Shown here in pieces: positions 3,700-32,455 of a stretch of 64,000 nucleotides of DNA (position 1 is the stretch's first letter; each line of letters opens with the position of its first letter). Source of the DNA: a virus (taxonomy: Duplodnaviria; Caudoviricetes); IMG/VR virus record IMGVR_UViG_3300032320_002249, positions 1 to 64,000 of that record; one strand, 5' to 3'. The notes beneath the pieces are model-generated. The model was not told where the DNA came from. It saw nothing but the letters and a program-made list of their open reading frames with translations, and searched no databases. A program made the position numbers and the translations under genes.

Positions 3700-3753
3700 A
3701 GGAACGTCAACAAGTTGAAACAGCAACTTTCTAAATCAACTAGGAGCTTAATT

Positions 3754-5271
3754 ATGGCAAACAAACTGATCGAAGCTATCAAAGAATCTTCCAATGTAAC
3801 TACTACTTGGAATGGTGCAAAGGCTTATGTTTCCACCAAAAATGCAAATCTTGACCTTTTCGGTAAAATTGGTTCTTCCCGTGGCGATGTAGCACAAATT
3901 AAAAAACTCTTTATCAATGCCTTCAAGGAGGATCCTGAGACTGCAACTCGTATTCTCTTCTATGGTCGTGATGTTCGTGGTGGTCAGGGAGAGCGTATGG
4001 TTTTCCGTACCCTTCTGAAGGAACTTGCTTCTATTGACAAGAATCTTGTTAAAAAGCTGGTTTCCACTGTTCCTCATTATGGACGTTGGGATGATCTCAT
4101 GATTTTGGAGGATACCCTTGCCTGGAGCACTGTTCTTGAGCATGTGAAGTTCCAACTGAAGCAAGATCTTGATACTGATATTGGCAAGCCTATTTCGCTT
4201 CTTGCTAAGTGGCTTCCTTCTATCAATGCATCTTCTAAGGTGTCGAAGCGTATTGGTCGTAAGATTGCAAGTTCTCTTGGTCTTACCGAAAAAATGTATC
4301 GTGTGACTCTTAGCGTACTGCGTAAGCAACTCGATATTCCTGAGCAAAAGATGTGTGCCCGAAACTGGGAAGAAATTGTCTATGACAAACTTCCTTCTCG
4401 CGCTGCACTCATGTACCGTAAGGCTTTCATGAAGCATGATAGCACTCGCTATCAAAAGTATGTGCAGGATGTTGCTGCAGGAAAGGCTAAAGTCAATGCT
4501 TCCACCTTGTATCCTTATGATATTGTGAAGCCTTTTATTAGTTCCGGTTACTATGGTCGCACCGCTTCCCAGAGCGCCACCGAAAAGAGTCTTCTTGATT
4601 CTCAGTGGAAGGCACTTCCTGACTACATGGAAGGAAATCCTTTCAATGGTCTGGTTCTGTGTGATGTATCCGGCTCTATGTATTCCTCTTATGGAAACAA
4701 GAGTGATCTACGTCCTATCGATGTATCTGTTTCACTGGCAATTTATATTGCCGAACGAAACACCGGACTTTGGAAAAACAACTTCCTTGCATTCGATTCT
4801 ATTCCTCGTCTTGCCCAAGTGCGCGGAAATACCATCGAAGAAAAGGTGAATAGTGTTAAGAATTCTACTAGCTATATGGGTAGTACCGACCTTCAGGCAG
4901 TTGTTAAGCTGATTCTTGATAGTGCAATCAGTAATAATCTGGCTCAAGAAGACCTTCCTGAGAACTTGATTATCATCTCTGATATGCAGTTCAATGGTTC
5001 TAATGCTGCTTGTAGAAACACCAACTTGGAAGCACTCAAGATCCAGTATCAAAATGCAGGATACCAAATTCCTAGCATCGTCTTCTGGAATGTAAATGCT
5101 GCGGCTAATGTTCCTATCAAGATCGATGATCGTGGAACCTGCCTGGTGTCTGGTTGTTCTCCTTCTATCATGAAGTCTATTCTTTCTCGTAGGGAATATA
5201 CTCCTCTTGATATGATGAATACTGCCATCTATGATGCTCGGTATGATCTAATCGGTGAAGCGTTCCGCTGA
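3754..5271 (+). CDS. DUF2828-like TROVE/vWA-domain protein
   Basis: RDVRGGQGER, GRWDDL, LAKWLPS, MIDAS-like DVSGS, ISDMQF, VFWNV, VSGCSPSI; AGGAG RBS at 3742. Confidence 0.8.
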   Translation: MANKLIEAIKESSNVTTTWNGAKAYVSTKNANLDLFGKIGSSRGDVAQIKKLFINAFKEDPETATRILFYGRDVRGGQGERMVFRTLLKELASIDKNLVKKLVSTVPHYGRWDDLMILEDTLAWSTVLEHVKFQLKQDLDTDIGKPISLLAKWLPSINASSKVSKRIGRKIASSLGLTEKMYRVTLSVLRKQLDIPEQKMCARNWEEIVYDKLPSRAALMYRKAFMKHDSTRYQKYVQDVAAGKAKVNASTLYPYDIVKPFISSGYYGRTASQSATEKSLLDSQWKALPDYMEGNPFNGLVLCDVSGSMYSSYGNKSDLRPIDVSVSLAIYIAERNTGLWKNNFLAFDSIPRLAQVRGNTIEEKVNSVKNSTSYMGSTDLQAVVKLILDSAISNNLAQEDLPENLIIISDMQFNGSNAACRNTNLEALKIQYQNAGYQIPSIVFWNVNAAANVPIKIDDRGTCLVSGCSPSIMKSILSRREYTPLDMMNTAIYDARYDLIGEAFR

Positions 5272-6295: not shown

Positions 6296-7981
6296 ATGTC
6301 ACTATCTTTCAAAGTACCAACTACAATTTATAAGGAAATTGCTGAGTATGACATTTCCAAACCTAAAGATTTAACAGCTCCCCCAAGAAACCCTGCTCCA
6401 GCCAGGGTTGTAAAACCTAAAAACTTTGGCACTCCTTATGACCTGTTGCCTACTAATATCATTTCTACTGAAGGTCAAAAAACCATTGTAGATAGAATTC
6501 ATACAAAAGTTTCTGTGATTCCCCGATCTCATCATAGAAAAGAAGATAGTATTGTTAATATTAGCAATAAACCAAAAGCAATCGTGGGATTTTTTGGGGT
6601 ATTTTGGTATTCATTTTGGATAATTGAAAATGATGAAAATTATTTGATGGGTCTTAAAATTTATGTAAGAAATATCGTCTCGTATAAAAATAATTCCGCT
6701 TTTTCGGAATTTCTTAGGTCTCTCAATATTAATATAGATGAAGTTGTTACTGAAGAAATTTTAAATGCAACTAAAAAACCAAAGGACATTGAATTCACCA
6801 AAAAAGTTAGTTTGGAGGACTTAAAAAAAGGAAAATACTATTCTACCTATAACTATTCTTATGGTGGTTCATCTTCTACTTTCAATACTGAGTTGATCCA
6901 ACATCTCAGAAAAAAAGTTCCAACTTGGAAAAATACTAATACTGCCTATTGGTATAGGGATAGTATTAGTAACTTAATGCATAGAATTTCAAATAATCCT
7001 TATAAAGAACTTTTTCAAAAACGATTAAGAAATGAACTGTTTGCAACACATCAAAAGTTTAAAGAAAATGAGTTAAATCTTGAAACTTTTTATGATTTGC
7101 TTGCAGACAAGTATAAAGAAAAATTCAATACTCCTTATGTTAGAAAAGTAATTAATGAATCCATTGATTCTATTAATCGCTATTATAATAATCCGGCTAA
7201 CGAATCTCAGGATACCTTTAATAATCACATCAATGACCTAATTTATAGGATCAATTTTGTAGCTAAGATTTTAGAAGTTTATGACAATCTTTCAGTAGAT
7301 CAGATTAATTCCTTATTTTCAGTTAGTTTTATTGATACTGCTCGTAGACCCCTTAGTTTCGAGGTTCCATTCAACGGAAAAATTAAAGAATGGCTCAATA
7401 AAAACGTTCCGTTCAAATCAGCATTTAATATGATAAAAACGGATTGTCATCTGTTTAGGGATAGTATTTCTATGCTAGGAACAGTTCTATCTAAAAAACC
7501 AGATCTAAAATATGAAGAGAGGTATAGGGTCAACACCTTCCATGATTACATCATGGCAGAACAGTGGAAGTTGAACAATAAGGATGGCCCCCTTCCTCAA
7601 TACCTTATTCCACAGCCCATTAAAATCAATAATGATTGGACGTTTTTCCAACCAAGTTCTATTCACCAACTGGCCCTATGGGGGAGAGAGGCAAGGAACT
7701 GTGTGGGTGGTACATACTACATTAATGGTATCAAAGACAAAAGGCACTTCATTGTTTTGGCGATGAAGAATCATGTTCCAACCTTTACAATTCAATTGGT
7801 TCTTAGGGGAGCTAACTTAGAAGTTTCTCAAATTAAGAAGTCTTCTAATGCTGCTCTTAATAATCAAGAAATGAAAGAGTATGAAAATCTGTTTTCTAAT
7901 CTGATGAAAGTCAGGGAAGAACAGATTAAGCAAGAAGAACTAAATAAAGTTGAAGCCCAAGTTGCTGTTGAGGGGGCCTGA
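6296..7981 (+). CDS. PcfJ-like domain protein
   Basis: C-terminal QPxSxxQLxxWGxxxRNCVGxxYxxxI...FIVL...FTIQL pattern. Confidence 0.7.
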   Translation: MSLSFKVPTTIYKEIAEYDISKPKDLTAPPRNPAPARVVKPKNFGTPYDLLPTNIISTEGQKTIVDRIHTKVSVIPRSHHRKEDSIVNISNKPKAIVGFFGVFWYSFWIIENDENYLMGLKIYVRNIVSYKNNSAFSEFLRSLNINIDEVVTEEILNATKKPKDIEFTKKVSLEDLKKGKYYSTYNYSYGGSSSTFNTELIQHLRKKVPTWKNTNTAYWYRDSISNLMHRISNNPYKELFQKRLRNELFATHQKFKENELNLETFYDLLADKYKEKFNTPYVRKVINESIDSINRYYNNPANESQDTFNNHINDLIYRINFVAKILEVYDNLSVDQINSLFSVSFIDTARRPLSFEVPFNGKIKEWLNKNVPFKSAFNMIKTDCHLFRDSISMLGTVLSKKPDLKYEERYRVNTFHDYIMAEQWKLNNKDGPLPQYLIPQPIKINNDWTFFQPSSIHQLALWGREARNCVGGTYYINGIKDKRHFIVLAMKNHVPTFTIQLVLRGANLEVSQIKKSSNAALNNQEMKEYENLFSNLMKVREEQIKQEELNKVEAQVAVEGA

Positions 7982-13113: not shown

Positions 13114-13242
13114 ATGACCACCCCCAACTGGCAGAAAAACTCTGGAAAACAGAAAAAGACCAAGGGTTGCTGTAAAAACCGGATTAAATCGAGGAAGCAA
13201 GCCCTCCAGGCTCTTTTGAACAAGTTATCCCAGAAAAGTTAA
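13114..13242 (+). CDS. Small basic cyanophage-type peptide (42 aa)
   Basis: MTTPNWQ start, K/R-rich; follows a promoter module. Confidence 0.55.
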   Translation: MTTPNWQKNSGKQKKTKGCCKNRIKSRKQALQALLNKLSQKS

Positions 13243-16078: not shown

Positions 16079-17154
16079 ATGGGATGCTGGTTTAAAACTT
16101 GCGGGCTCACTCAGATGCACATTTATGGTGGAGAACCTGTTTATGTTTTTCTGCTAAAAAAACCAAAATATAAAAATGTTTCTTACTCCAATTTTCTTTA
16201 TGATCCTTTGCTGTTTCCTTTTGATAGTATCTATGATGAATATGGCGGTGGGAAACAAAGTACAGGAATTGCGTTTGAACTAATTATCAAACATCTTAAA
16301 GAATGTCTTGTTGAAATGCCTTTGGGGGAAAACGAATACCATGATATTGAGGTAAAGAGAGATGCCTTTGATGAGGATCTTTTCTTTAATTCAATAAAAG
16401 AAGATAGGCTGTTCATAAACACAAAACATGATGAAAATATTCCAGTAAATTTCGTCATGATGAAAAAAATGCAGTAGACAAAATTCTTGAAGATTATGTC
16501 ATTGATGATTACAGACAAAAAGTTAAATATGCGGATATTATCAATGACCTAGATTCTTATATTGAAACTAAGTTACAATGTATTCAACAAAGTAATGGTT
16601 ATTTTTATGATCCGTTTATTGAAAATAATCTAGTATATGATTATTTTGATGGTATTATGTATTCTATTTCACTTTTTAGCTCTTTTGATCCAATTGATTT
16701 TCGCAATCTTGTGCGAACATATCTGACAGAAGGAAAAATTGAAGAAGCAAAAGAAATCATGAAGCGAGTTATCATGGGGGTTGTAATTAATATTTTTATG
16801 GATAGTATTAGAAAATGCTGGCATCCTGGTGGATTTGAAGGTAGTCAGAGTTCAGACTTGAATTCTTATAAACTTCTCATTGATACTATGAATGAAAACA
16901 TGGTCATTGAAGAGTATGAATGTGAGAAAATGTCAGAAGAAGAAGTATTCAAATTGGCAGAAAATCCTAACACTTCCCAAAGAATTTTAGATGAACTTGC
17001 TGATGACACTAGCCCTACTATTCGTGGAGCGGTTGCATGGCATAACAATACTTCCCAGGAAACTCTTAGGAGGCTTTCTGATGATGTAGATTCATACGTT
17101 AGAAATTATACAAAAGCAAACCCTAACTTTTTGAAAGGAGAATCTTCTACATGA
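16079..17154 (+). pseudogene. Phage hypothetical protein fused to C-terminal LRV repeats, split by a frameshift at an A7 run
   Basis: The -1 frame is open from 16468 into the ATG at 16657; one extra A at 16463-16469 joins the two ORFs. Confidence 0.7.
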
Positions 17155-17498
17155 ATTACTTTGAAATTTCTAAACAAGCCTTAGACCCAACTACTCCGGC
17201 AGATGTTCTTTCTGCCATCTCTAATCATGGGGAATGGACTATTCGTGAAAAAGTTGCATGTAATCCAAATGCACCACCAGAAACCTTGATGATTCTTTCT
17301 AATGAGGATTGGATTATTCGCGGAGTCGTTGTGCGTAATCCAAATGCACCACACGAAATTCTTAAAAATCTCGCTGGTGATGATGTTTGGTATGTTCGGG
17401 CTTACGTTAGTCGCAGGCCAAATATCACAGAAGAATTAATTATTCTTTCTAAGGCCGCCTCATTGATTCAAAATCTGGAAAAATGGACGGTTCATTAA
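17151..17498 (+). CDS. LRV/HEAT-like repeat protein
   Basis: NPNAPxExL..L..D..W.VR repeats; TEELIILSKA cap. Confidence 0.85.
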   Translation: MNYFEISKQALDPTTPADVLSAISNHGEWTIREKVACNPNAPPETLMILSNEDWIIRGVVVRNPNAPHEILKNLAGDDVWYVRAYVSRRPNITEELIILSKAASLIQNLEKWTVH

Positions 17499-17573
17499 GT
17501 GGCACAGCAACCCACACCCACTCTCAAAGCCCTGTTAAATTAAGAGAGTCCAAAACACACCACAACTTTTATT

Positions 17574-17834
17574 ATGACCACCGCTATTGAGACCCTGCCC
17601 ATCCATGACCCCAGTGCTGAAGTGCCGATTCCTGGTCCCGGTGCTGCCGCTCCAACCGCTCCCGCTATTCGTGGACGCAAACCCGCTCGCACTGTGCGAG
17701 ATTATCAGGGCTGGAAGATTTCTCCTGGAGATAACAACCTTTGGGACATTTCAAACGAGTCTGATACGTTTTCTGGTTATGCTACTATTAATGACGCCCA
17801 AAGGGCAGTGCGAGCCAAAAAGCGGGCCACATGA
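17574..17834 (+). CDS. Hypothetical protein, Pro/Ala-rich N-terminus
   Basis: Own promoter module at 17484-17541 and terminator at 17843-17868. Confidence 0.65.
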   Translation: MTTAIETLPIHDPSAEVPIPGPGAAAPTAPAIRGRKPARTVRDYQGWKISPGDNNLWDISNESDTFSGYATINDAQRAVRAKKRAT

Positions 17835-17842
17835 ATCAGCCG

Positions 17843-17868
17843 AAAGCCATCTTAATGATGGCTTTTTT
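17843..17868 (+). terminator. Intrinsic terminator
   Basis: AAAGCCATC-ttaat-GATGGCTTT followed by a T run. Confidence 0.7.
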
Positions 17869-17891
17869 AATTACCAATTTTTCTAATACTT

Positions 17892-18236
17892 ATGAACTTG
17901 TGTCTCGATCAAAAATTAGAATTAGTACAAAATCCCAATACTTCTCCAGAAGTACTTGAGGAACTTTCTAGGGATGAGTATTATAGTGTTCGTTATCGTG
18001 TTGCAAGCCACCCCAATACACCACCAGATGTTCTTATGGAATTTGCTGGTGGTAAATTTGCACTTCATCGTTTCCCTGTTGCATTAAACCCAAACGCGCC
18101 AGTGGAAATCCTTATGAATCTTGCTATTGATGATGATTGGTACGTTCGTCGAAATGTCATGAGAAACCCTAATGCAACAGAAGACATTATTATGCTAGCA
18201 AAGGCAACTGATTTTATTCTTGTTGGTCATTGGTGA
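17892..18236 (+). CDS. LRV/HEAT-like repeat protein
   Basis: Three 26-aa repeats plus NPNATEDIIMLAKATDFI cap. Confidence 0.88.
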   Translation: MNLCLDQKLELVQNPNTSPEVLEELSRDEYYSVRYRVASHPNTPPDVLMEFAGGKFALHRFPVALNPNAPVEILMNLAIDDDWYVRRNVMRNPNATEDIIMLAKATDFILVGHW

Positions 18237-18269
18237 AGCTGTAAAGGATCGATATTATTGTTAATACTT

Positions 18270-18689
18270 ATGAACTTGAGTCTGAATGAAAAATTAGAAT
18301 TAGCAGACGATCACAATACTGCTCCAGAAGTTCTTAGAGAACTTTCTGGGGATACATCTACTAATATTCGTTGTCTTGTTGCATCTAACAGAAACACCCC
18401 AGTTGATGTATTTACAGTTCTTGTAGATGATAATGATTTGGTTCGTTATCATATCGCAAGGAACCCTTGTGCTCCAAAAGAGGTTCTTAGCAAACTTGCT
18501 GAGAATAAAGATATTATAGTTCGTCGTGTTGTTTCAAGTAATAAAAATACCTCATTAGATAGTTTGATGAGATTAGCTAATGATTCTGATATTTTTGTTG
18601 TCTGTCTTGCTGAAAGAAACCCAAATGCAACAGAAGATGTTATTATGTTGGCCAAAGCCACTTCTTTTATTTTAAGTTTTAAAACCTGA
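18270..18689 (+). CDS. LRV/HEAT-like repeat protein
   Basis: Same start context (taatacttATGaacttg) as 17892; cap ATEDVIMLAKATSFI. Confidence 0.88.
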   Translation: MNLSLNEKLELADDHNTAPEVLRELSGDTSTNIRCLVASNRNTPVDVFTVLVDDNDLVRYHIARNPCAPKEVLSKLAENKDIIVRRVVSSNKNTSLDSLMRLANDSDIFVVCLAERNPNATEDVIMLAKATSFILSFKT

Positions 18690-18690
18690 T

Positions 18691-19395
18691 ATGTCCACTA
18701 GAAAAATTTACTACGTTGATTGCTATGAAAACTTGTATGGAGATTATCTTCTCCATAGAGAAAGAGATTTTTTTAGTGATGATTTCATTTATACTAAATG
18801 TCCTGTTTTTAACCACAAAACGAATAGAACCTTCGTGGGTTGCTCTCCTATTGATTTCAAGTTAGAATATAATCCACTTACAAATGCAATTGCATCAGAT
18901 AACAATGACATATTAATTTTTGATCAGGAACACTTGAGTTCTCAGCTTCCAGTAGTTCAATTAAAAGTTCCATCCCTGTTATTCTTCACTGAAGAAGAAA
19001 ATGTATGGTTTGAGTACAGAGATCATCCATTGACTGCCTTGAATAATAATTTCATTGGGGTAGGAGGATGGTTCAATCTTTCAACCTGGCCAAGAAATTC
19101 TATCAATGCCTTCACTATTGTTGATGTAAACAAACCAGTCATAATTGAAAAAGATGATCCTCTTTTTAGGGTATCATTTTACACCCAGAACTTTGATGAT
19201 GGCATTATTTTAGAAAAAATAAAAGATCCCACAGAAACAAGTAGGATTTTAAAAGAATATTTTGAGTATAGAGAAACAAACGCTTCTAATGTTGTAAAAA
19301 ACATTTTAGATTCTAAGAACACTACATTTAGTTGGAAGAAAGCCTTATTTTCTTCTATTGGAATCAATAAATGTCCTTTTAAGTTTTTTCATTGA
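18691..19395 (+). CDS. Cyanophage-type hypothetical protein
   Basis: CP at the N-terminus, GWFNLSTWPR, C-terminal KCPF. Confidence 0.7.
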   Translation: MSTRKIYYVDCYENLYGDYLLHRERDFFSDDFIYTKCPVFNHKTNRTFVGCSPIDFKLEYNPLTNAIASDNNDILIFDQEHLSSQLPVVQLKVPSLLFFTEEENVWFEYRDHPLTALNNNFIGVGGWFNLSTWPRNSINAFTIVDVNKPVIIEKDDPLFRVSFYTQNFDDGIILEKIKDPTETSRILKEYFEYRETNASNVVKNILDSKNTTFSWKKALFSSIGINKCPFKFFH

Positions 19396-19479
19396 CTGTG
19401 CCAGCTCAATAAGTGGCACACCTTAACCGGACAACCCATTTCCTTTGCTGTATTATAAAGAGGTCCAAACGAAATTACT

Positions 19480-20346
19480 ATGGCTGTTACTTCCCCCGTT
19501 CAATTTACAAAAGATTTTGAGAAGGATTTTTCTAGTATCATCAAGTACGTTTCAGGGTACAAAGAAAGTCAAAACAAAGATTTTTTCAATAAGCCTTATT
19601 TCAAGACTTATTTCAAATCTAAGAATATTTCTGAAGTCGTTCCATTTTTTGAGATCGTTAATTTTATCAACAATTACCTCGTCCTGAGTAAGGTTTGGGA
19701 AGACGTTGATATTAATCATTATCAAACATATCACCGCATCATGGAGCTGTTTTCGTTCCGTTATATGGATAATGAGGCATCTAGGGAGTGGCTTACTAAG
19801 GAGATCAGTTCTAAGACCTTCTTCAACATGATCGTTCAGGCATACAAAAAAACCAGCTATTCTCAAACTGATCAATATTTTAGGGACACTTTTAGCCAGC
19901 TGCAAAAGCTGTATAAAAAGAACGCAACAATCACTCGTCCTAAGCGTTGGCGACTTCTAGATTTTCATGATCATGTTTCTTTCCTTTTCCTGGAAAGCAC
20001 GATTGATAACAAAGATCATGATAACGAGTTTCTTCCAAGCCCAGTGACTACTAATGATGGTTGGAATATTCGTCAACCTAAGGATACCCTTGAGCTTGCC
20101 CTTTGGGGTAAGAAAGTTCACAACTGCGTTCTTTCCTATGAAGATGCTATCGAAAAGAAGCAGAGTGCCATCATTCTCATCGAACAAAATGAGGCACCTA
20201 AATTCACCGTGGAACTTGACTATGAAAAACTGAAGAAAAAGAAGATTCATATCAAGCAAGTGGTTGGTATGAGCAACAGTTCACTTTCTTCAGAAGAACG
20301 CAATCAGTGTGACAGCATTCTCACTAATATTCTGATCAAAGCCTGA
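19480..20346 (+). CDS. PcfJ-like domain protein (second paralog)
   Basis: QPKDTLELALWGKKVHNCVxxY...FTVEL...QVVG; own promoter module at 19397-19455. Confidence 0.7.
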   Translation: MAVTSPVQFTKDFEKDFSSIIKYVSGYKESQNKDFFNKPYFKTYFKSKNISEVVPFFEIVNFINNYLVLSKVWEDVDINHYQTYHRIMELFSFRYMDNEASREWLTKEISSKTFFNMIVQAYKKTSYSQTDQYFRDTFSQLQKLYKKNATITRPKRWRLLDFHDHVSFLFLESTIDNKDHDNEFLPSPVTTNDGWNIRQPKDTLELALWGKKVHNCVLSYEDAIEKKQSAIILIEQNEAPKFTVELDYEKLKKKKIHIKQVVGMSNSSLSSEERNQCDSILTNILIKA

Positions 20347-20351
20347 GTAAC

Positions 20352-20375
20352 AAAGCCTCCTTTCTGGAGGCTTTT
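20352..20375 (+). terminator. Intrinsic terminator
   Basis: AAAGCCTCC-tttct-GGAGGCTTT-T. Confidence 0.7.
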
Positions 20376-20399
20376 ACTTTCTCTATAATATGGTATCAC

Positions 20400-20855
20400 A
20401 TGAACCACGATTATAACAAAAAGCTTGAAATAGCCTCAGACCCAAATACATCACCAAAAATCCTCAGGCAACTTGCTTGCGATGATGACCCCTACATTCG
20501 CTATCTAGCTGTAAGGAACCCCAATACACCCGTCGATGTTCTTATTGAACTTTCTAATGATGATGATAGATGGGTTCGGATTGAAATTGCACGAAAAATC
20601 AATGTACCTCTCGATATTCTAAAAAAACTCTCTAGTGATAGTGATGTGTCTGTTCGGGATACTCTTGCTACAAATCCAAACATAACTGCTGAGATTCTTA
20701 TGATTCTTGCAAAGGGTGGGGATTATTGGGTTCTAAAAAGTGTTATAAAACACTCAAGAGCTACAGAAGAGGTTATTGTTTTAGTAAAGGCTATTGAATT
20801 TATTAAAGGATGGTCTGTTTGGAACTATTGTAAAAATGAATTGGAATTATTTTGA
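20400..20855 (+). CDS. LRV/HEAT-like repeat protein
   Basis: Four repeats; cap ATEEVIVLVKAIEFI. Confidence 0.88.
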   Translation: MNHDYNKKLEIASDPNTSPKILRQLACDDDPYIRYLAVRNPNTPVDVLIELSNDDDRWVRIEIARKINVPLDILKKLSSDSDVSVRDTLATNPNITAEILMILAKGGDYWVLKSVIKHSRATEEVIVLVKAIEFIKGWSVWNYCKNELELF

Positions 20856-21114
20856 CAAAAAAATTGAATTAGCAAGAAGTTTAGATACCCCAGCAAGAGT
20901 TCTTATTAAACTTTCTAAGGATTCTGAATCCTTGGTTCGTACTTATGTTGCAGACAATCCAAATACACCTTTAGAAGCTCTTAGGATTCTTGCTACAGAT
21001 TCTCTTCCATCTATTCGCTACTGGGTTGGAAGAAACCCAAATGCAACAGAAGAAATTATTATGCTAGTAAATGCCACTAATTTTATTTCAGGGTTAAAAA
21101 ACGGTATCAAATGA
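20836..21114 (+). CDS. LRV/HEAT-like repeat protein
   Basis: Start trimmed to MNWNYFDKKIELA; cap ATEEIIMLVNATNFI. Confidence 0.85.
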   Translation: MNWNYFDKKIELARSLDTPARVLIKLSKDSESLVRTYVADNPNTPLEALRILATDSLPSIRYWVGRNPNATEEIIMLVNATNFISGLKNGIK

Positions 21115-21461
21115 ACCCAATTTTTCTAAGCAAAAAAATTAGATTAGCAAAAAGTTTAGATACACCTGTAGAGGTTCTTATTGAACTTGCTGGTGATGAA
21201 TGTGCATGGGTTCGGTACTGGGTTGCACTAAACAATAATGCACCTATGGATGTTCTAAAAAAACTTTTTAGTGATAATAATGTATCCGTTCGGGATGCCA
21301 TTGCTTCAAATCCCAATATAACACCCGAGATTCTTATGATTCTTGCAAAGGATGGGGATTATTTGACTCGCCTTAATGTTATGCATCATCCGAAAGCTAC
21401 AGAAGAGATTATTGTTTTAGTAAAGGCTATTAATTTTATTAAAGAAATGCGCCAATTCTAA
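21111..21461 (+). CDS. LRV/HEAT-like repeat protein
   Basis: ATGA overlap; cap ATEEIIVLVKAINFI. Confidence 0.88.
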   Translation: MNPIFLSKKIRLAKSLDTPVEVLIELAGDECAWVRYWVALNNNAPMDVLKKLFSDNNVSVRDAIASNPNITPEILMILAKDGDYLTRLNVMHHPKATEEIIVLVKAINFIKEMRQF

Positions 21462-21535
21462 AAGTGGCACAGGGGCTTTGTGGTGCCCATGAAACGGTGC
21501 TATGATTAAGAGGTAGTCAAACCTTTCTATTACTC

Positions 21536-21832
21536 ATGCCTCTCACAATCGATGCTCCTAATGTTGTCGATAAATCATCTGAAGTTGTTAAAAAGCCAGC
21601 ACCTCGTTATCGGGTTCTGCTTCATAATGATGATCACAATTTTCCAGAATATGTTGCTCTTTGTTTGATGGAAGTTGCCCAACTGAGCGAGCAAGAAGCT
21701 ATCCATGTTATGTTTACTGCTCATACTACTGGAGTTGGTCTTGTTAAGATCTGCGACATTGAGCCAGCAGAATTTTATTGTGAGGGTCTTAAATCCAAGG
21801 GTCTCACAAGCACAATCGAACCTGAAGAGTGA
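21536..21832 (+). CDS. clpS: ATP-dependent Clp protease adaptor ClpS (cyanobacterial-type)
   Basis: YRVLLHNDDxN, AHxxG, ExAEFYCEGLKSKGLTSTIEPEE. Confidence 0.92.
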   Translation: MPLTIDAPNVVDKSSEVVKKPAPRYRVLLHNDDHNFPEYVALCLMEVAQLSEQEAIHVMFTAHTTGVGLVKICDIEPAEFYCEGLKSKGLTSTIEPEE

Positions 21833-21837
21833 GTATT

Positions 21838-22023
21838 ATGGAACTTACCACTAGTCAGAAATTTGAAATTGCGAAGTTCAACATGATTATCGACCAATGC
21901 GATGACATTGAAAAACTGAGAGAAATTTCAAAGCAATTGCTGACTGCCTGGATGACCCAGCGAGCTGCAACTCAACATTCAATTAAAAGTACCTTAGCTA
22001 CTTACAAATCTTTTGGAGAATAA
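21838..22023 (+). CDS. NblA-like small helical protein
   Basis: LTTSQKFE resembles the NblA L(S/T)xEQxF motif; about 60 aa, two predicted helices; divergent. Confidence 0.5.
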   Translation: MELTTSQKFEIAKFNMIIDQCDDIEKLREISKQLLTAWMTQRAATQHSIKSTLATYKSFGE

Positions 22024-22031
22024 AGTTTCTA

Positions 22032-22421
22032 ATGAATGTTCTTCAGAATTACAAGAACACTAAAAATCGAACTGTGCAAGAATTTTTAGATCTTTGTTCA
22101 GTTTGTACAGATCCCAACACCTCTTCTAAAATTCTTACCACTCTCGCAGAGGATGTAGATTTTAATATTCGTTCTAAGGTAGCAGCTCATGCTAACACTC
22201 CTACTAGTGTTCTTAGGGAACTTGCTTATGATTATGCAGAAGTTGTTTGTTACTCTGTAGCTTGTAATCCTAACACTCCACAAGAGGCTCTTTATTTACT
22301 TTCATCCCATTCAAATTTTTGGATTCGTGGTGCCGTGGTAAACAACCCAAATGCAACAGAAGAGATTATTATGCTAGCAAAGGCAACTGGATTTATTGAG
22401 AATAGATTTCAATTTACCTAA
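22032..22421 (+). CDS. LRV/HEAT-like repeat protein
   Basis: Repeats plus cap ATEEIIMLAKATGFI. Confidence 0.88.
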   Translation: MNVLQNYKNTKNRTVQEFLDLCSVCTDPNTSSKILTTLAEDVDFNIRSKVAAHANTPTSVLRELAYDYAEVVCYSVACNPNTPQEALYLLSSHSNFWIRGAVVNNPNATEEIIMLAKATGFIENRFQFT

Positions 22422-22450
22422 TTCTTTAGAAAACTTTACCTCTGCAACTC

Positions 22451-22942
22451 ATGAATCCTTTTCACGACAAAGAGTACAAAATTGCATACCTCAAGGCCCG
22501 TGCTTATGACAGTCGTACAGAAGTTCGTTTGCAGGTTGCAAAAAATAAACTCACTCCACCCGAATTTCTTACCTTCCTTGCTGGGGATCAAGATGGATAT
22601 GTTCGTATGGAGGTTGCGAGAAATCCAAATGCACCAGCAGAAGCTCTTATGATTCTTATTTTTTCTAAAAATAGCATGGGTTCGATTTATTGGAGAGTTG
22701 CAAAACATCCCAATGCCACTCCACAAATATTATCTATATTGTCCGATTATGATGGACCTGTTGTTCACGGTGTTGTTGCAAGCAATCCAAATACACCAGC
22801 AGAAGTTCTTATGAAACTTGCTGGGAACCGTGTCTCATTGGTTCGTACTCATGTTATAAACAACACAAATGCAACAGAAGAGATTATTATGACGGCAAAA
22901 GGAACCTCATTTATTATTAAAAATGGACTATACAACTCTTAA
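22451..22942 (+). CDS. LRV/HEAT-like repeat protein
   Basis: Repeats plus cap ATEEIIMTAKGTSFI. Confidence 0.88.
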   Translation: MNPFHDKEYKIAYLKARAYDSRTEVRLQVAKNKLTPPEFLTFLAGDQDGYVRMEVARNPNAPAEALMILIFSKNSMGSIYWRVAKHPNATPQILSILSDYDGPVVHGVVASNPNTPAEVLMKLAGNRVSLVRTHVINNTNATEEIIMTAKGTSFIIKNGLYNS

Positions 22943-23267
22943 AGAAAAAATAAAATTAGCTGGAAACCCTAGTACACCAAAAGAAATACTCAAGATACTT
23001 TCTTTGCATCAATCTTGGTTTGTTCGTTCTGCAGTTGCAGGTAATCCCAATACAGACCCAGAGGTACTTAAGGTACTATCTGGTGATATTGATTTGGATG
23101 TTCTCTGTAAAGTTGCTAGCAATCCTAGCACACCGCTAGATGTTCTTATGAAATTTGCAATGTATAGATCCCCCTGGATGAGGGATAGTGTTATAGAGAA
23201 CCCCAAAGCTACAGAAGAACTTATCATTCTAGCAAAGGCCACAGAATTTATTCTAAGAAACCACTAG
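22923..23267 (+). CDS. LRV/HEAT-like repeat protein
   Basis: Repeats plus cap ATEELIILAKATEFI. Confidence 0.88.
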   Translation: MDYTTLKEKIKLAGNPSTPKEILKILSLHQSWFVRSAVAGNPNTDPEVLKVLSGDIDLDVLCKVASNPSTPLDVLMKFAMYRSPWMRDSVIENPKATEELIILAKATEFILRNH

Positions 23268-23276
23268 CATTTTAAA

Positions 23277-23462
23277 ATGAATCACGGTTCCATTCAAAAA
23301 ATCAGGGCAGCACGAAACCCGTACACACCACAAGAAAAACTTGTAGAACTCGCTGGGGATGATTTTTGGCTTGTTCGTTTTTGGGTTTTAGAAAACCCAT
23401 CAGCCCCGGATGATGCTATCATATTGGCAAAGGCTATCGATTTTGTTTCTCGTCATCTATGA
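23277..23462 (+). CDS. LRV/HEAT-like single-repeat protein
   Basis: One repeat plus cap APDDAIILAKAIDFV. Confidence 0.8.
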   Translation: MNHGSIQKIRAARNPYTPQEKLVELAGDDFWLVRFWVLENPSAPDDAIILAKAIDFVSRHL

Positions 23463-23872
23463 ATCACTCTAAAAAAATAGAGGCAGCCAAGGATCCTAAC
23501 ACTCCGCCAAGGACTCTTAAAAAACTTTCTAATGATAAATCTTTAGAGGTTAGGCTTGCCGTTATCCAAAATCCAAATACTCCATGTGATATTCTCATAA
23601 AATTAGCTCAAACTCATCACCCTAGCATTCGATTACATCTTGTAAGAAGGCCCACCCTACCCAAGCAGGTTTTTAAGATTCTTTATACGAGTGAATGTTC
23701 ATTCATTCGTGAATATGTTGCAAAGCATCCCAACGCGCCGGCTGATGTTCTTATTAGCCTTGCTGGCGATGAAAACGGGGATGTTCGTCGGTGGGTTTTG
23801 AAAAACCCAAATGCGCCTGAGGATGCTATCGTGCTAGCCAAGGCTATTAATTTTGTGTGGTGTATGACATAG
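23459..23872 (+). CDS. LRV/HEAT-like repeat protein
   Basis: Repeats plus cap APEDAIVLAKAINFV. Confidence 0.88.
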   Translation: MNHSKKIEAAKDPNTPPRTLKKLSNDKSLEVRLAVIQNPNTPCDILIKLAQTHHPSIRLHLVRRPTLPKQVFKILYTSECSFIREYVAKHPNAPADVLISLAGDENGDVRRWVLKNPNAPEDAIVLAKAINFVWCMT

Positions 23873-23989
23873 ATTAATAATAATATAGAGGTATCTTTCT
23901 AAACAGAAGGACACCTCATTAAGTGGCACATTGCCTTTGCCGCCTGTCGGTTTATTCTAGTATAATAAGGGTAACCTGCATTTTTAGTC

Positions 23990-24292
23990 TTGACCATGAG
24001 TAAAAATCCTTTAATTATTATGGCCAAGGATCCAAATACACCACCAGAGGTTCTTAGAGATCTTTCTAAGATATTTGAGTATATTATTAGAGGATTTGTA
24101 GCACAAAACCCAAGCACACCCACCGATGTTCTTAAAAAACTTGCAGAAGATGATCTTAGTCATGTCCGTTATTGTATCATGAGAAATTCAAATGCAACAG
24201 AAGACATTATTATGCTAGCAAAAGCAGTTACATTTATTCGGGAACACCAAGTTTCATTTATTCTGAATCAGAGGAGAAAAAAATGCAATTGA
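23990..24292 (+). CDS. LRV/HEAT-like repeat protein
   Basis: After a promoter module at 23908-23966; cap ATEDIIMLAKAVTFI. Confidence 0.85.
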   Translation: MTMSKNPLIIMAKDPNTPPEVLRDLSKIFEYIIRGFVAQNPSTPTDVLKKLAEDDLSHVRYCIMRNSNATEDIIMLAKAVTFIREHQVSFILNQRRKKCN

Positions 24293-24555
24293 GTGGTTAC
24301 GATAAAATTCAAATCGCACAAAAGCCAAGCACCTCACAAGAAACACTTGCAATTCTTGCTTGTGATGATGACCCTGATGTTCGCTATTTTGTAGCAAAAG
24401 ATCCAAATACACCCCAAGATGTTCTCTTAAGACTTTCTACAGATAATGATTGGATGGTCCGTTATTGTATCATGAGAAATTCAAATGCAACAGAAGACAT
24501 TATTATGCTAGCAAAAGCAACTGATTTTATTGTTAATGAGATGTGGAAATCATGA
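24283..24555 (+). CDS. LRV/HEAT-like repeat protein
   Basis: GAGGAG RBS before the ATG at 24283; cap ATEDIIMLAKATDFI. Confidence 0.85.
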   Translation: MQLSGYDKIQIAQKPSTSQETLAILACDDDPDVRYFVAKDPNTPQDVLLRLSTDNDWMVRYCIMRNSNATEDIIMLAKATDFIVNEMWKS

Positions 24556-24935
24556 ACCGGGCAGAAAAAGAAAGGTTGGCAGCATGGAAGGCTGCCAAAT
24601 ACACTACATCATCAAAGGTTCTTAGGGAACTATCTAAACATGAATGTGAGGAAGTTCGTGCTAATGTTGCATTCAATCCTAATACACCACAGGATATACT
24701 TACAGAACTTTCTAAAGACATTGACCTTCGTATTCTTTATTGGTTAGCCCGTAATACTAAAACTACATCAGAGTTACTTATGAAAATTGCTAGTAAGGCA
24801 CCACCCTGTAGTAGTATTTCTTCGGCTATTTTACACAATCCAAATGCAACAGAAGACATTATTATGCTAGTAAGGGCAACTGATTTTATTGTTAACAGTT
24901 ATTATGAGAGTAAAGGTCACCGAATTTATTCTTAA
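24552..24935 (+). CDS. LRV/HEAT-like repeat protein
   Basis: ATGA overlap; cap ATEDIIMLVRATDFI. Confidence 0.85.
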   Translation: MNRAEKERLAAWKAAKYTTSSKVLRELSKHECEEVRANVAFNPNTPQDILTELSKDIDLRILYWLARNTKTTSELLMKIASKAPPCSSISSAILHNPNATEDIIMLVRATDFIVNSYYESKGHRIYS

Positions 24936-24937
24936 CC

Positions 24938-25358
24938 ATGAATTATACCAAAAAAAATAAGACTAGCTAACAATCCAAATACATCACCTGAGATGTTATC
25001 ACGTCTCTCTAAGGATCATAATCTTTGGGTTCGTTGTCATATTGCAAGGAATCCCAATACACCAACAAATGATCTCATAAAACTTACCAGGGATACCTCT
25101 CCCACAGTTCGACTGTGCCTTGCACATAGGGCCAATTTAACAACTGAGATTCTTTGTATTCTTAGTAAAGATTTTTCCTGGGACGTTAGAAGGGCAGTAT
25201 CCTTTAATCCTAATACACCATTAGATATTCTTATGGAACTTGCTAGAGATAGTAGTAGTCTAGTTCGTGGCAAGGTTATAAACAATCCCAAGGCCCCGGA
25301 AGATGCTATCATACTAGCCAGGGCCATTAATTTTATTATATCTATGAGGTTCTTATGA
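24938..25358 (+). CDS. LRV/HEAT-like repeat protein, N-terminus out of frame at an A8 run
   Basis: Removing one A at 24950-24957 yields MNYTKKIRLANNPNTSPEML...; cap APEDAIILARAINFI. Confidence 0.75.
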
Positions 25359-25795
25359 GCTACTATGATGAGAAATTTATTCAAAGGGTGATGCTAGCTA
25401 GGAATCCAAATACATCGCCTGATGTGTTATTAAGTCTTTCTAGAGATATTACCATTCATATTCGATGTGATGTTGTAACTAATCCTTCTGTCACAACGGA
25501 AATCCTAGAAATCCTTAGTAAGGATACTTCTTGGCTTGTTCGGGCTGTAGTCGCCAATACCACCAAAACACCTCCAGGCATTCTTAGGAAACTTGCTGGA
25601 GATGCAGCTGAGCGTGTAAGGTGTATGGTTGCCTCTAATCCTAGTACCCCACCTGATGTTATTATGACCCTTGCTGGGGATGGGGATTGGTGGGTAAGGA
25701 ATGGTGTCATATTGAACCCCAAGGCCACAGAGGATGTTATAATGTTAACCAGGGCCATTGGTTTTATTGGATCTATTAAAAACATTACACCATGA
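25355..25795 (+). CDS. LRV/HEAT-like repeat protein
   Basis: Four repeats plus cap ATEDVIMLTRAIGFI. Confidence 0.88.
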   Translation: MSYYDEKFIQRVMLARNPNTSPDVLLSLSRDITIHIRCDVVTNPSVTTEILEILSKDTSWLVRAVVANTTKTPPGILRKLAGDAAERVRCMVASNPSTPPDVIMTLAGDGDWWVRNGVILNPKATEDVIMLTRAIGFIGSIKNITP

Positions 25796-26292
25796 ATTAT
25801 CTTGACAAATATAAAATTGCTGGTGATCCAAATACCTCACCCGAGACCTTATCAATTCTTGCTAGGGATGATAATTCTAGTGTTCGTTATAAGGTAGCAG
25901 GTAATCCTAATTGTCCACCAAAAATCCTAGAAATTCTTAGTGAGGATCTCGATAATTCGGTTCGGACAAGGGTTGCATTTAACAAGAATACACCCCAGAA
26001 AATTCTGGAAATTCTTAGTAAGGAGAGTGATTACTGGATTCTAAGAACAGTAGCACAAAATCCCAATAATTCCTTGGACACCCTTAGGAAACTTTCTAGG
26101 TCAAATTATAGATGGATCAGATCTTTAGTTGCCTCTAATCCTAGTACCCCACCTGATGTTCTTATGACCCTTGCTGGGGATGAGGATGAACTGGTTCGTC
26201 GTTGGATCGGACGCAACCCAAGTGCCCCGGAGGATGCTATCATACTGGTCAGGGCCATTAGTTTCATGGAGGACCTAATGTATGGATTATAG
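25792..26292 (+). CDS. LRV/HEAT-like repeat protein
   Basis: Five 26-aa repeats plus cap APEDAIILVRAISFM. Confidence 0.88.
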   Translation: MNYLDKYKIAGDPNTSPETLSILARDDNSSVRYKVAGNPNCPPKILEILSEDLDNSVRTRVAFNKNTPQKILEILSKESDYWILRTVAQNPNNSLDTLRKLSRSNYRWIRSLVASNPSTPPDVLMTLAGDEDELVRRWIGRNPSAPEDAIILVRAISFMEDLMYGL

Positions 26293-26773
26293 TTATTTGT
26301 TAGATCTCGCTAAGGATCCCAGAACCTCACCAGAGGTTCTATTAAATCTTGCTCATTCGGTATATTGGGTTGTCAGGAAATATGTTGCAGATAACCCAAA
26401 ATGTCCCCCCGAGGCCCTATCAATTCTTGCTGGGGATGAGAATGTTAGTGTTCGCAGTTCCGTGGCATATAATACCAGAACCCCACTAGAGGACCTTAGG
26501 AGGCTTGCAAAGGATGGTCGCTCGGCGGTTAGGCTAGAAGTAGCCAATAACACCAAAACCCCTCCAGAGGCCCTTAGGGAGCTTGCTGGGGATTTCTATG
26601 AGTCTGTCAAAAATTATGTTGCCCAAAACCCCAATACTCCACCGGATGTTCTTATGGAATTTGCTGGTGGTAAATCTACATTTCATCGTAGGGCAATTGT
26701 AAGAAACCCAAATGCCACGGAGGATGCTATCATGTTAGCAAAGGCCCTTGATTTTATTCAATATTATGGATAG
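26282..26773 (+). CDS. LRV/HEAT-like repeat protein
   Basis: Five repeats plus cap ATEDAIMLAKALDFI. Confidence 0.88.
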   Translation: MDYSYLLDLAKDPRTSPEVLLNLAHSVYWVVRKYVADNPKCPPEALSILAGDENVSVRSSVAYNTRTPLEDLRRLAKDGRSAVRLEVANNTKTPPEALRELAGDFYESVKNYVAQNPNTPPDVLMEFAGGKSTFHRRAIVRNPNATEDAIMLAKALDFIQYYG

Positions 26774-27179
26774 TGTAAAATTTGATCTCGCAAGGAATCC
26801 TAATACAACCCCAGAAACTCTTAGGGAGCTTGCTGGAGACAAGGAACCTTATGTTAGGGAATTAGTTGCAAATAACCCAAATTGTCCCCCAGAGGTCCTA
26901 TCAATTCTTGCTGGTGATAAAGATTATCATGTGAGATATAATGTCGCTAGGAATATTAATACTCCTCCAGATTCTCTTAGGGAGCTTGCTTGTGATAAAG
27001 ATGTTTCTGTCAGGAATTATGTTGCCCAAAACCCCAATACTCCACCGGATGTTCTTATGGAGCTTGCTGGTGATAAATTTCCTCTTGTAAGATATGAAGT
27101 TCGGCACAATCCAAAGTCCCCGGAGGATGCTATCATGTTATCAATGGCCCTTGATTTTGTTCTTTATGAATTATCTTGA
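26766..27179 (+). CDS. LRV/HEAT-like repeat protein
   Basis: Four repeats plus cap SPEDAIMLSMALDFV. Confidence 0.88.
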   Translation: MDSVKFDLARNPNTTPETLRELAGDKEPYVRELVANNPNCPPEVLSILAGDKDYHVRYNVARNINTPPDSLRELACDKDVSVRNYVAQNPNTPPDVLMELAGDKFPLVRYEVRHNPKSPEDAIMLSMALDFVLYELS

Positions 27180-27422
27180 AAAATGATTTTGGCAAACAGT
27201 CCAGATACTCTACCAGAAACTCTAGGCATCCTTTCTATGGATTCTGATTCTGTTATTCGTCATTTGGTTGCACTAAATCCTTCTACTCCACCTGAGGCTC
27301 TTAGAGAACTTGCTTCTGATCTTCTTTCTCAGGTTCGTGATGGGGTTCTATACAATCCTAATGTTACCGAAGAAATTATACTTTTATCTAAGGGAATCGC
27401 ATTCATTTTAAAAAATAAATAG
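27166..27422 (+). CDS. LRV/HEAT-like repeat protein, possible N-terminal frameshift at an A5 run
   Basis: One extra A gives MNYLEKMILA, like paralog MNYLDKYKIA; in-frame ATG at 27183 otherwise; cap VTEEIILLSKGIAFI. Confidence 0.75.
27415..27421 (+). promoter_or_regulatory. T4-type late promoter
   Basis: ATAAATA 26 nt upstream of the 27447 ATG. Confidence 0.55.
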
Positions 27423-27446: not shown

Positions 27447-29132
27447 ATGGTTACTTATTCAGAGTTTATACAAATTGCAGAGAGATATTATCAACCAGAT
27501 GAACCTCTACAATCAGGAAAAACCCCATATGGTAAGGCAGTTTCTTCTACCTATAGACAGAAAGGAGAATTCAAAAGATCCTCTCCAGATAAGAAAACCC
27601 CGGATGCAGAGTCTCGTATTGAAAGGCAACGTCGTAACACTTACTCAAAAGTAAAACACGGGGCAGATAATCCTAATTTTAATTTAACCCCTGATTCTAA
27701 TTATGATGTGAAAGGAAAAGGAGGCGATAATCTAGAAGTGACAGATACTAAACGTGGATATTCAATGCAATTATCTAGGTTAAATTCTACTGTTATGGGT
27801 AAGCCCGAATATGATGTTACATGGACCAACAAAAATAGAAGAAGAGATGGAGCTAATCCTGGAAAATCCAGAAGGGTAGTTAGGGATATTACTCGTATGT
27901 GGAAGCAACAGGTGTCGCCTCGTCTTCCTTATAATTCTGTATTATCAAACTATCCCCAATTTAATGATACAAGTGACAGAAATACAAGAGCTAAGTTTTA
28001 TTCAAAGTATGCTGGATTCGGTGATATGGCTGACTTTGATAGTGCCCAATATGCAAAGGTAGAAAGAGAACCCTCATCCCGCCAAGCCGCAAAAGGAGTA
28101 TTACGAACTAAACCTATAGATGCCCGTGCTGCAGAAGATAGTATAGTGGATCTTAGTAGTAAGATTCGCGCAAGATTAGATGCTACAAGACAGCATAAGC
28201 CAATTCCACGCCAAACAGAACCCCGTAAAATTGCACCTGCCAAACCATCGAGACCATCTATTATTTCACCTCCAATTAGATCATCAGTTCAACGTTTTAG
28301 ACCAATAACACCAAAACTTCGTGGAAGACTTGCCCTGGCTGGAGCTGCCCTTACTGGTGCCGGGGCCTTGTATGATTTAATGAGGTCTAAAAGAAAAAAG
28401 CCATTCGGTGAAAGTGTAGTATTGAGAGCCCTTAGATCTGCTAGAAATATTAGAAGATTATCTTCCTTGCTACCTGGACCTAGATCTACTGGTTATAAAA
28501 AACAACTTACAGTAGGTCCAAGTAAAAGTATTGTAGGTCTAGAACGCCAAAGAAAAGATAGTTCAACTAGGGCCGCATTTCGTAGGGCTGGAATGAATAG
28601 ATCTCAGGAAGGTGGTAATAGAATAAGATTTAATTCTACAGATGAAAAGAATAAATTCTCTAAAACCGCTATATCTTCATATCCATCCCAATCCTCGTAT
28701 GCCCTAGATATGATTCCTGATAAAGTAAAGGAAAGAATGTATGGTAATGGAGTGAGATCAACTCAAGAAAGATCCTTATATTTAAGAAGATTAAGAAGAC
28801 AACTTGGAGGAAGTCGTACTAGAAGAGGTGTTCATAATGTAGATATTTTACCTAGGGGTAGTTATATGAAAAATGATCCAAAAGAGTTAGTTAGTAGGGG
28901 AAAGGAGTACAATAGGGTTGTTAGGGAACTACCCCAGGAAGTGAAAAATGTAGGTGGAAATAGGGGGGATAAGATTGTAGGAAAGGCATCTGAGGTCATG
29001 ATTGGAGCAACTGATACTGAGAAAGGAAGAAGAAAAAGAAGGGATTTATATTCAAGAGCACTCGGAGCAAGTTCCTGGGATCCAATTACAAGAGTTCAGG
29101 TTGCTAGTATAAGAGAAGAATTGATGTATTAA
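27447..29132 (+). CDS. Basic putative head-internal protein with a capsid-targeting sequence
   Basis: N-terminus MVTYSEFIQIAE resembles the T4 IP CTS MKTYQEFIAE; Arg/Lys-rich; late promoter upstream. Confidence 0.6.
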   Translation: MVTYSEFIQIAERYYQPDEPLQSGKTPYGKAVSSTYRQKGEFKRSSPDKKTPDAESRIERQRRNTYSKVKHGADNPNFNLTPDSNYDVKGKGGDNLEVTDTKRGYSMQLSRLNSTVMGKPEYDVTWTNKNRRRDGANPGKSRRVVRDITRMWKQQVSPRLPYNSVLSNYPQFNDTSDRNTRAKFYSKYAGFGDMADFDSAQYAKVEREPSSRQAAKGVLRTKPIDARAAEDSIVDLSSKIRARLDATRQHKPIPRQTEPRKIAPAKPSRPSIISPPIRSSVQRFRPITPKLRGRLALAGAALTGAGALYDLMRSKRKKPFGESVVLRALRSARNIRRLSSLLPGPRSTGYKKQLTVGPSKSIVGLERQRKDSSTRAAFRRAGMNRSQEGGNRIRFNSTDEKNKFSKTAISSYPSQSSYALDMIPDKVKERMYGNGVRSTQERSLYLRRLRRQLGGSRTRRGVHNVDILPRGSYMKNDPKELVSRGKEYNRVVRELPQEVKNVGGNRGDKIVGKASEVMIGATDTEKGRRKRRDLYSRALGASSWDPITRVQVASIREELMY

Positions 29133-31954: not shown

Positions 31955-32455
31955 ATGGCTACCAACTACCGCAGGCTGTCCGTTGATCTTCTGAACTGGC
32001 TTGCAGCCGCCCCTGAGGGGGATCGGCGGGCCTATCGGATCACTTCAGAGTTCGCCATTCGTCATCCCAACTTCTTTGGCGAATTCATCAAGAACGATAA
32101 TTACCTCGACTTCCTCCATTCTATGTTGAGGAGTAATTCTCTCTGTGAGGGTAATACCATTGCTATTCGCCTGGTCAAGAAGCACCGGAAAGAGATGGTG
32201 ATTATCTATAAGGATCTCATCAAGAATACCCAGGTTCTCATCAAGAATACCCAGGCTCCTCCTACTCACCGGCATTTGAACTGGCTTTGGTCAGACCTTA
32301 TAAACACCGAACTTCATAAACTCATTGCAGAAGATACTGGCCGCCTCAATAAAATCCGTTATATTAAACGGGTCAGAGAATTGTCCGGCCTGGGACTGCG
32401 TGATGCTAAGGGCATTGTGGATCGCCTGTATGATACTGCTTTTAGGGGGGATTGA
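31955..32455 (+). CDS. Protein with a C-terminal ribosomal L7/L12 CTD-like segment
   Basis: KIRYIKRVRELSGLGLRDAKGIVD versus the L12 consensus KIxVIKxVRxxTGLGLKEAKxLVE. Confidence 0.7.
   Translation: MATNYRRLSVDLLNWLAAAPEGDRRAYRITSEFAIRHPNFFGEFIKNDNYLDFLHSMLRSNSLCEGNTIAIRLVKKHRKEMVIIYKDLIKNTQVLIKNTQAPPTHRHLNWLWSDLINTELHKLIAEDTGRLNKIRYIKRVRELSGLGLRDAKGIVDRLYDTAFRGD

Follow-up and report, generated by a model that had tools for sequence, protein, structure and literature searches.

A tandem array of positively selected LRV-repeat genes in a putative T4-like picocyanophage, a predicted repertoire of small binders

Polyimmunity loci, and immunity proteins made of HEAT, LRR or ankyrin repeats, are known in bacteria as protection against interbacterial toxins (PMC3482391), and by analogy such helical-repeat proteins and tandem loci are the nearest functional precedent for the locus described here, an array of genes encoding LRV repeats in IMG/VR record IMGVR_UViG_3300032320_002249. 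We analyzed the first 64 kb (the window) of this 88.85-kb viral contig, which is 41% complete. Like the array, homogeneous polyimmunity loci are tandem runs of coupled paralogs with a single binder fold, have no cognate toxin and differ in content between relatives (PMC3482391). However, they are bacterial and anti-toxin, and LRV repeats are not named there. Phage T4 amplifies an anti-toxin gene (tifA, directed against toxIN) by recombination at microhomologies (10.1101/2022.04.14.488369), which likewise yields recombination-driven tandem copies of a small gene in a T4-like phage, but the tifA copies are identical and raise dosage, whereas the LRV copies have diverged into distinct surfaces. 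Bacillus phage G also harbors a large paralog set, a lineage-specific expansion of ~35 Zn-ribbon genes (PMC7824862), although of another fold. The LRV fold, LRV genes in phages and gene expansions in phages are thus already known, but we found no description of a positively selected multi-gene phage LRV repertoire in the literature, of which subscription papers were thinly covered.

The repeat is carried by 21 open reading frames (ORFs), all on the + strand, between positions 16657 and 27422 (10.8 kb), and the 29 LRV matches in the 88.85-kb contig all fall within 17014-27320. Twenty of these ORFs are standalone genes encoding proteins of 61-166 aa, with pairwise identities of 31-66% (median 43%), which together comprise 63 units of 26 aa, one to five per gene, as a preliminary description made from the sequence alone had stated. 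LRV genes occupy 74% of the span, which is broken by five unrelated genes starting at 17574, 18691, 19480 (PcfJ-like), 21536 (ClpS) and 21838 (NblA-like). While the count of 20 standalone genes plus one fusion in ~11 kb also stands, the "fusion" at 16657 is in fact the 3' half of a split gene, interrupted at an A7 run at 16463 that is A8 in a sister phage (phage B), where the gene is a single 346-aa ORF. Other elements of that description hold in part: the conserved C-cap is shared by the 20 standalone genes but missing from the fusion, the N-cap is present loosely and not universally, and of the many junctions described as ATGA-coupled, six are ATGA overlaps and five more are overlaps of 8-20 nt. 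The ORF at 24993 (A16) has lost its N-cap via an A8 run at 24950, downstream of an ATG at 24938. Both A runs are included in an ENA assembly that is identical over 20 kb, possibly built from the same reads; a Logan contig is identical over 4.9 kb. Counting the last LRV copy of the sister phage (contig L010, ~13149-13180), three frameshifts occur in the family, two of them at A7/A8 runs, and phase variation or decay are possible explanations.

All ten array proteins tested match the Pfam LRV family (PF01816) at or above its gathering cut-off (21.7-85 bits versus 21.6), and the only sequence match in the Protein Data Bank is 1LRV (profile E 3e-12). An AlphaFold2 model of the protein encoded at 25792 (A18; pLDDT 97.6) displays an all-helical solenoid without strands according to DSSP, each unit consisting of a short helix and a nine-residue helix, with a closing helix of 19 residues. 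In a Foldseek search this model retrieved 1LRV and the alphaRep binders, with TM scores of 0.62-0.71 (0.70 for alphaRep). The alphaRep unit is HEAT-like and 31 aa long. Nevertheless, the layout of N-cap, n units and C-cap is the same in alphaRep (PMC3754942; 3LTJ, 4JW2, 7Z0G), as is the placement of variable residues on helix 2, where two pairs of neighbors are followed one turn on by a single residue; alphaRep is engineered, whereas in the phage array selection would have diversified a 26-aa LRV unit of natural origin. Membership in the PBS-lyase/alphaRep HEAT-like family was rejected, with a period of 26 aa, HEAT_2 below cut-off in all proteins and HEAT above it in 1 of 10. The array proteins would work like alphaRep but lie outside its repeat family. 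The 1LRV protein of Azotobacter vinelandii has the same repeat family by HMM (PF01816, PF25591) and the same fold, but it is a single 244-aa cellular protein whose cellular relatives often reach 500-2,200 aa, in contrast to the 20 separate short genes of the phage, and a constant tail and positive selection are found on the phage side.

Sequence variability is concentrated at seven positions of the unit (16-19, 22, 23 and 26), which show an entropy of 3.4-4.0 bits, compared with 0.4-2.4 for the scaffold, across 131 units from the window and sister phages. All 131 seven-residue codes are unique, and the five variable segments quoted in the preliminary description are found in the array translations. 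The positions lie in the loop and opening turn of the second helix and, further along, at i+4 and i+7/8, and are predicted from the model to form one helix face, that is, a surface stripe. In alphaRep, the variegated positions 18, 19, 22, 23, 26 and 30 constitute the binding face (PMC3754942). By analogy with alphaRep structures, and from helical periodicity, we infer that the stripe is a binding surface and that each paralog may have its own specificity. Units of cellular LRV proteins are variable at these positions too, so variability alone is a property of the scaffold. What sets the phage units apart is the chemistry of these positions, since W/Y/F account for 25% of residues 18, 19, 22 and 23 in the window versus 9.5% in 2,347 cellular LRV units (p 5e-13), while on the other exposed (outer) face of the window units they occur at 4 of 252 sites. 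The net charge of the paralogs spans -7 to +7.

The presumed binding face evolves ~3-6 times faster than neutral, while the scaffold is under purifying selection. In nine syntenic orthologue unit pairs, the Nei-Gojobori method gives a nonsynonymous rate (dN) of 0.42 at the seven positions versus a synonymous rate (dS) of 0.11 in the same codons, and a dN/dS of ~3. By codon likelihood, the orthologue units reach 3.6 (p 7e-5) and ten paralogue unit pairs 6.4 (p 2e-6), with 0.3-0.4 for the scaffold and 0.4-0.7 for the outer face. Swapping of blocks was rejected as an artefactual cause of these high values, because the signal persists when synonymous sites of the same block are used (2.9-4.7). Moreover, the result was replicated, with the positions fixed beforehand, in phage C, a phage outside the set from which the seven positions were defined (dN/dS 2.9, p 1e-4). 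The per-site check suggested in the preliminary description thus finds the variable positions, 7 of 26, neither scattered nor neutral, with three independent sets well above 1. The part of its proposal that concerns a diversified set of binders is well supported by helical periodicity, an aromatic-rich stripe, these dN/dS values and an alphaRep-like fold.

How such diversity arises is a separate matter. Diversity-generating retroelements (DGRs) likewise focus variation on a binding surface within a fixed scaffold, but the array, with neither adenine bias nor a reverse transcriptase found, has its diversity hard-coded in many genes. Adenine-specific substitution, as expected of DGRs, is absent: 70 of 170 changes do not involve adenine, and A and T at synonymous sites flanking the variable codons stay constant. 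No reverse transcriptase (RVT_1) was found in the 88.85-kb contig, so on present evidence these sequences show no sign of a DGR. That a dedicated DGR-like hypermutation system writes the variable codons appears extremely improbable for these reasons, even if in phage C codons 20, 21, 24 and 25 are near frozen, silent sites included (dS 0.09), between codons at a dN of ~1, and even if the contig covers only 41% of the window phage genome. Duplication, gain and loss of units, point mutation and recombination suffice to account for the diversity. Linkage decays with distance inside the unit in phage C (p 0.002) and in phage B (p 0.016), but no decay was detected in the window (p 0.5), and recombination within units is therefore not shown for the window genome.

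While the stripe diversifies, the C-terminal helix common to the 20 standalone genes is constant. Eight of its positions 2-12 are at least 78% hydrophobic, and these residues surround the helical wheel, together with one conserved Lys; at the equivalent exposed positions of internal units, the figure is 17-40%. Since polar residues would be expected on the free side of a mere cap, this helix probably makes a second, shared contact (a dimer with itself or a paralog, or a common partner) besides capping the solenoid. Its dN/dS is 0.53 and its silent sites vary freely, which shows that the constraint acts on the protein and rules out a DNA-level role for this conserved block.

The sister phage, represented by an 80-kb ENA and a 36-kb JGI contig (L009, L010, L013), carries the fusion and 20 genes with the same tail. 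An unrooted tree built from the last unit and the tail resolved ~5 orthologue pairs between the two phages, and the members of a pair differ in their numbers of units. Seven genes (A11, A12, A16-A20) group in a clade restricted to the window phage (support 92), and another clade is restricted to the sister phage (support 100). An additional population is represented by fragments. Phage C, a 244-kb T4-like contig (L136, L140), has at least eight paralogs in 30 kb, all ending in another invariant helix, and in a contig closer to the window phage by gene content (L138), two LRV genes with a third type of tail flank a PcfJ-like gene. LRV proteins are common in tailed phages (BFVD/UniProt; ESM Atlas viral clusters), where they share the scaffold but usually occur in one or two copies, mostly one, with tails of their own lineage, compared with 21 in the window phage. 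Consequently, the novelty lies in expansion and selection and not in the fold, and because the array tails differ, sequence comparison suggests that expansion from one or two copies occurred at least twice. Pattern scans of IMG/VR for the LRV family, its C-terminal helix, ClpS and the 18691 gene returned no relatives, and a scan of JGI metagenomes gave a single weak match, which was spurious. Among isolated phages, a weak LRV gene in Moorella phage MTATph1 was the sole find, and cyanophages had none, in searches whose sensitivity is lowered by the BLAST low-complexity filter.

Several features point to a T4-like picocyanophage. Downstream of the array are neck, terminase, sheath and portal genes of T4 type, and the portal is closest to those of cyanomyoviruses (72% identity with Synechococcus phage S-SRM01). 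Two array neighbors match Synechococcus phages B3/B23, and the best matches of the phage ClpS (63-67%), among 251 genomes searched, are in cyanobacterial genomes of 2.3-2.7 Mb. With a T4-type portal and picocyanobacterial auxiliary genes, the phage qualifies as T4-like on gene content, and its host is presumably a picocyanobacterium. Five picocyanobacterial genomes searched contain no LRV match.

A promoter-associated motif recurs in 17 copies versus 3.3 expected (window 10570-43066), at the boundaries of cassettes that are rearranged in the sister phage, and often overlaps the upstream stop codon. In the array it occurs at 17497, 19411, 21462 and 23921, each time with a -10-like box after it. 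Generic sigma-70 matches are no commoner than chance, and the T4 late-promoter consensus occurs only at 1851 and 54067, none in the array. This motif, its accompanying -10-like boxes and the lack of a late promoter in the array suggest that the genes are expressed early and intracellularly. In T4 internal proteins, a constant tag is coupled to inhibitors that vary, but their folds are different and the constant part of the LRV proteins is C-terminal. An array of this virion-packaged type was rejected because there is no late promoter in it and the N-termini differ.

We consider it likely that the array encodes diversified binders, and our best reading is a predicted birth-and-death repertoire of small intracellular binders. 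The paralogs would be made early from host-type promoters and would target host proteins that vary from one picocyanobacterial strain to another, with defence sensors or toxins as the likeliest candidates; stoichiometric blocking of these targets would widen the host range. Each C-terminal helix would cap its solenoid and probably make one shared contact, while the repertoire would grow by recombination-driven amplification, then by point mutation and unit shuffling. Whether the paralogs in fact act by binding and blocking host proteins of this variable kind, our best guess being defence factors, we regard as evenly balanced; nothing in evidence points to phycobiliproteins, which the preliminary description had also named as targets. 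Several points weigh against this interpretation. The array proteins matched none of the known defence families to a noteworthy degree, and 2 of the 21 LRV genes are frameshifted. The dN/dS values come from 9-15 unit pairs per set, picked by synteny or scaffold identity, and multi-nucleotide changes affect 54 of 103 changed codons, where single-step models can inflate the ratio. The surface location of the stripe rests on DSSP and helical periodicity. Finally, given the broad spread in net charge and in units per gene, the paralogs need not share a single biochemical role.

The constant helix raises the alternative that the proteins are substrate receptors for targeted proteolysis, in which the repeats pick host proteins and the helix docks a common Clp component (ClpS, the NblA-like protein or host ClpC). 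Poxvirus ankyrin/F-box proteins are a parallel for such adaptors. The helix is indeed hydrophobic on all sides, ClpS lies inside the array in both window and sister phages, the window phage has an NblA-like gene, JAB and ThiF genes are near LRV genes of the sister phage, and NblA binds ClpC (PMC12695635). However, the NblA-like gene lacks a Pfam NblA match and, in the sister phage, does not adjoin ClpS; ClpS calls were absent from the 30 kb covered of phage C and the 12.5 kb covered of the two-copy contig, both with other LRV tails; and linkage to ClpS may reflect shared ancestry only. We regard proteolysis as unlikely to be the common role. The broader proposition that T4-like cyanophages repeatedly evolved hard-wired, antibody-like LRV receptors for different host defence or regulatory proteins, all connected by the same constant helix to a shared effector, either the Clp protease or a dimer partner, strikes us as rather doubtful. 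It is improbable, too, that all paralogs form a host-range panel tracking allelic versions of one or few host targets: paralogs have a common preference for aromatic residues at 18/19/22, the units of phage C closely resemble one another and orthologues are still under positive selection, but one to five units, charges from -7 to +7 and unique codes imply epitopes of different size and chemistry.

Positive selection reveals a conflict but not the opponent, which could be proteins of competing phages or mobile elements, the array then serving superinfection exclusion or interference. A cellular LRV gene that sits among immunity genes and the five picocyanobacterial genomes without an LRV match are compatible with this, but no membrane anchor or signal was seen in the array proteins and amplification against host defence has a direct precedent in T4, so competitor targets seem quite improbable. 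HEAT-like repeats such as AlkD bind DNA, and the invariant Arg21 beside W/Y could stack on bases, as in a PPR- or PUF-like code; yet most array proteins are neutral or acidic, and members with one or two units offer too little length for a sequence code. Diversification would not be driven by an unchanging small ligand, as for sponges of signaling nucleotides, and we judge binding of nucleic acids or small molecules to be very unlikely. A tandem expansion that was neutral or selfish, fed by recombination between repeats and giving no distinct functions, could explain the frameshifted copies in both phages, a widely varying copy number and variation of cellular repeats at the same positions, but it is hard to reconcile with dN/dS significantly above 1 in three sets, a purified scaffold and the retention of ~8 kb in a genome limited by capsid size, and its probability is slight indeed.

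To our knowledge, phage counter-defence proteins are mostly unrelated one-offs. If the repertoire of host-directed binders is real, one scaffold expanded to ~20 specificities under measurable positive selection, in at least two separate expansions, would represent a general, evolvable counter-defence strategy and would assign a role to the widespread LRV family. The natural variants, 49 in number (21 + 20 + 8), are direct baits for picocyanobacterial proteins engaged in a phage arms race, and they offer protein engineers a 26-aa binder scaffold already shaped by selection. Should the receptors also act through a common effector, they would be a prokaryotic-virus counterpart of the poxvirus adaptors, and baits for cyanobacterial defence proteins.

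The coordinates of the array genes and of the elements among them are given in Table 1. The NblA-like protein has four to five homologues in each of two picocyanobacterial genomes, in keeping with the multiple nblA copies that marine Synechococcus is reported to have (PMC12695635).

Table 1. LRV genes, embedded genes and promoter-associated motifs of the array (B02, B03, B06, B12, B13 and B16 are genes of the sister phage)
Feature	Position	Strand	Remarks
PHROG 5960-like gene fused to LRV units	16079..17154	+	ORFs 16079-16477 + 16657-17154 (A01); without C-helix
A02	17151..17498	+	3 units; orthologue of B02
Promoter-associated motif, phage-wide	17497..17506	+	Followed by -10-like box
A03	17892..18236	+	3 units
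A04	18270..18689	+	4 units; orthologue of B03 (90% nt)
Promoter-associated motif	19411..19420	+	
PcfJ-like gene	19480..20346	+	LRV genes nearby in sister phage; flanked by them in two-copy relative
A05	20400..20855	+	4 units
A06	20836..21114	+	2 units
A07	21111..21461	+	3 units; in clade with A05 and B06
Promoter-associated motif	21462..21471	+	Heads ClpS to A12
ClpS adaptor	21536..21832	+	Inside array; adjoins LRV genes in sister phage too
NblA-like protein, 61 aa	21838..22023	+	Without Pfam NblA match; not at this spot in sister phage
A08	22032..22421	+	3 units
A09	22451..22942	+	4 units
A10	22923..23267	+	3 units
A11	23277..23462	+	1 unit; 61 aa
A12	23459..23872	+	4 units
Promoter-associated motif and TATAAT box	23921..23966	+	Heads 9-gene run A13-A21
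A13	23996..24292	+	2 units; orthologue of B12
A14	24283..24555	+	2 units; mosaic, first unit nearest B13, last nearest B16
A15	24552..24935	+	2 regular units and 1 with insertion
A16	24938..25358	+	Frameshifted; ORF 24993-25358 retains 3 units and C-helix
A17	25355..25795	+	4 units
A18	25792..26292	+	5 units; modelled (pLDDT 97.6)
A19	26282..26773	+	5 units
A20	26766..27179	+	4 units
A21	27183..27422	+	2 units

Directly after the array lies a very basic 561-aa ORF without PHROG match (27447-29132), one of two unexplained ORFs of this length, the other being at 6296-7981. The sister-phage contigs end right after the array in a low-complexity A/T tandem repeat (L010, 13520-13965), and between LRV genes of that phage there is a row of Prok-JAB, a 329-aa unknown and ThiF (L013, 4904-7743), a ubiquitin-like conjugation set not seen in the window array. 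A single-copy, prophage-like LRV gene is located beside a YqaJ exonuclease in contigs L129/L130 (10001-10633), and its 210-aa family forms many distinct clusters, which suggests allelic rather than paralogous diversification. In a profile search of 1.84 billion sequences, matches were dominated by long cellular LRV proteins, several of which have a WGR domain; in Calothrix (contig L133, 4001-11063), a 1,373-aa cellular LRV gene is followed by three NuiA nuclease-inhibitor genes. Elsewhere in the window, a 166-aa ORF (31955-32455) weakly matches the C-terminal region of ribosomal protein L7/L12. A CCA-adding/poly(A) polymerase-like gene (553-1320) and a 518-aa ORF (3715-5271), TROVE/Ro-type by eye but without NCBIfam match, possibly form an RNA-repair set, and between them, at 3042-3635, this cyanophage encodes a full-length, short-form EF-Ts (TIGR00116 above cut-off).

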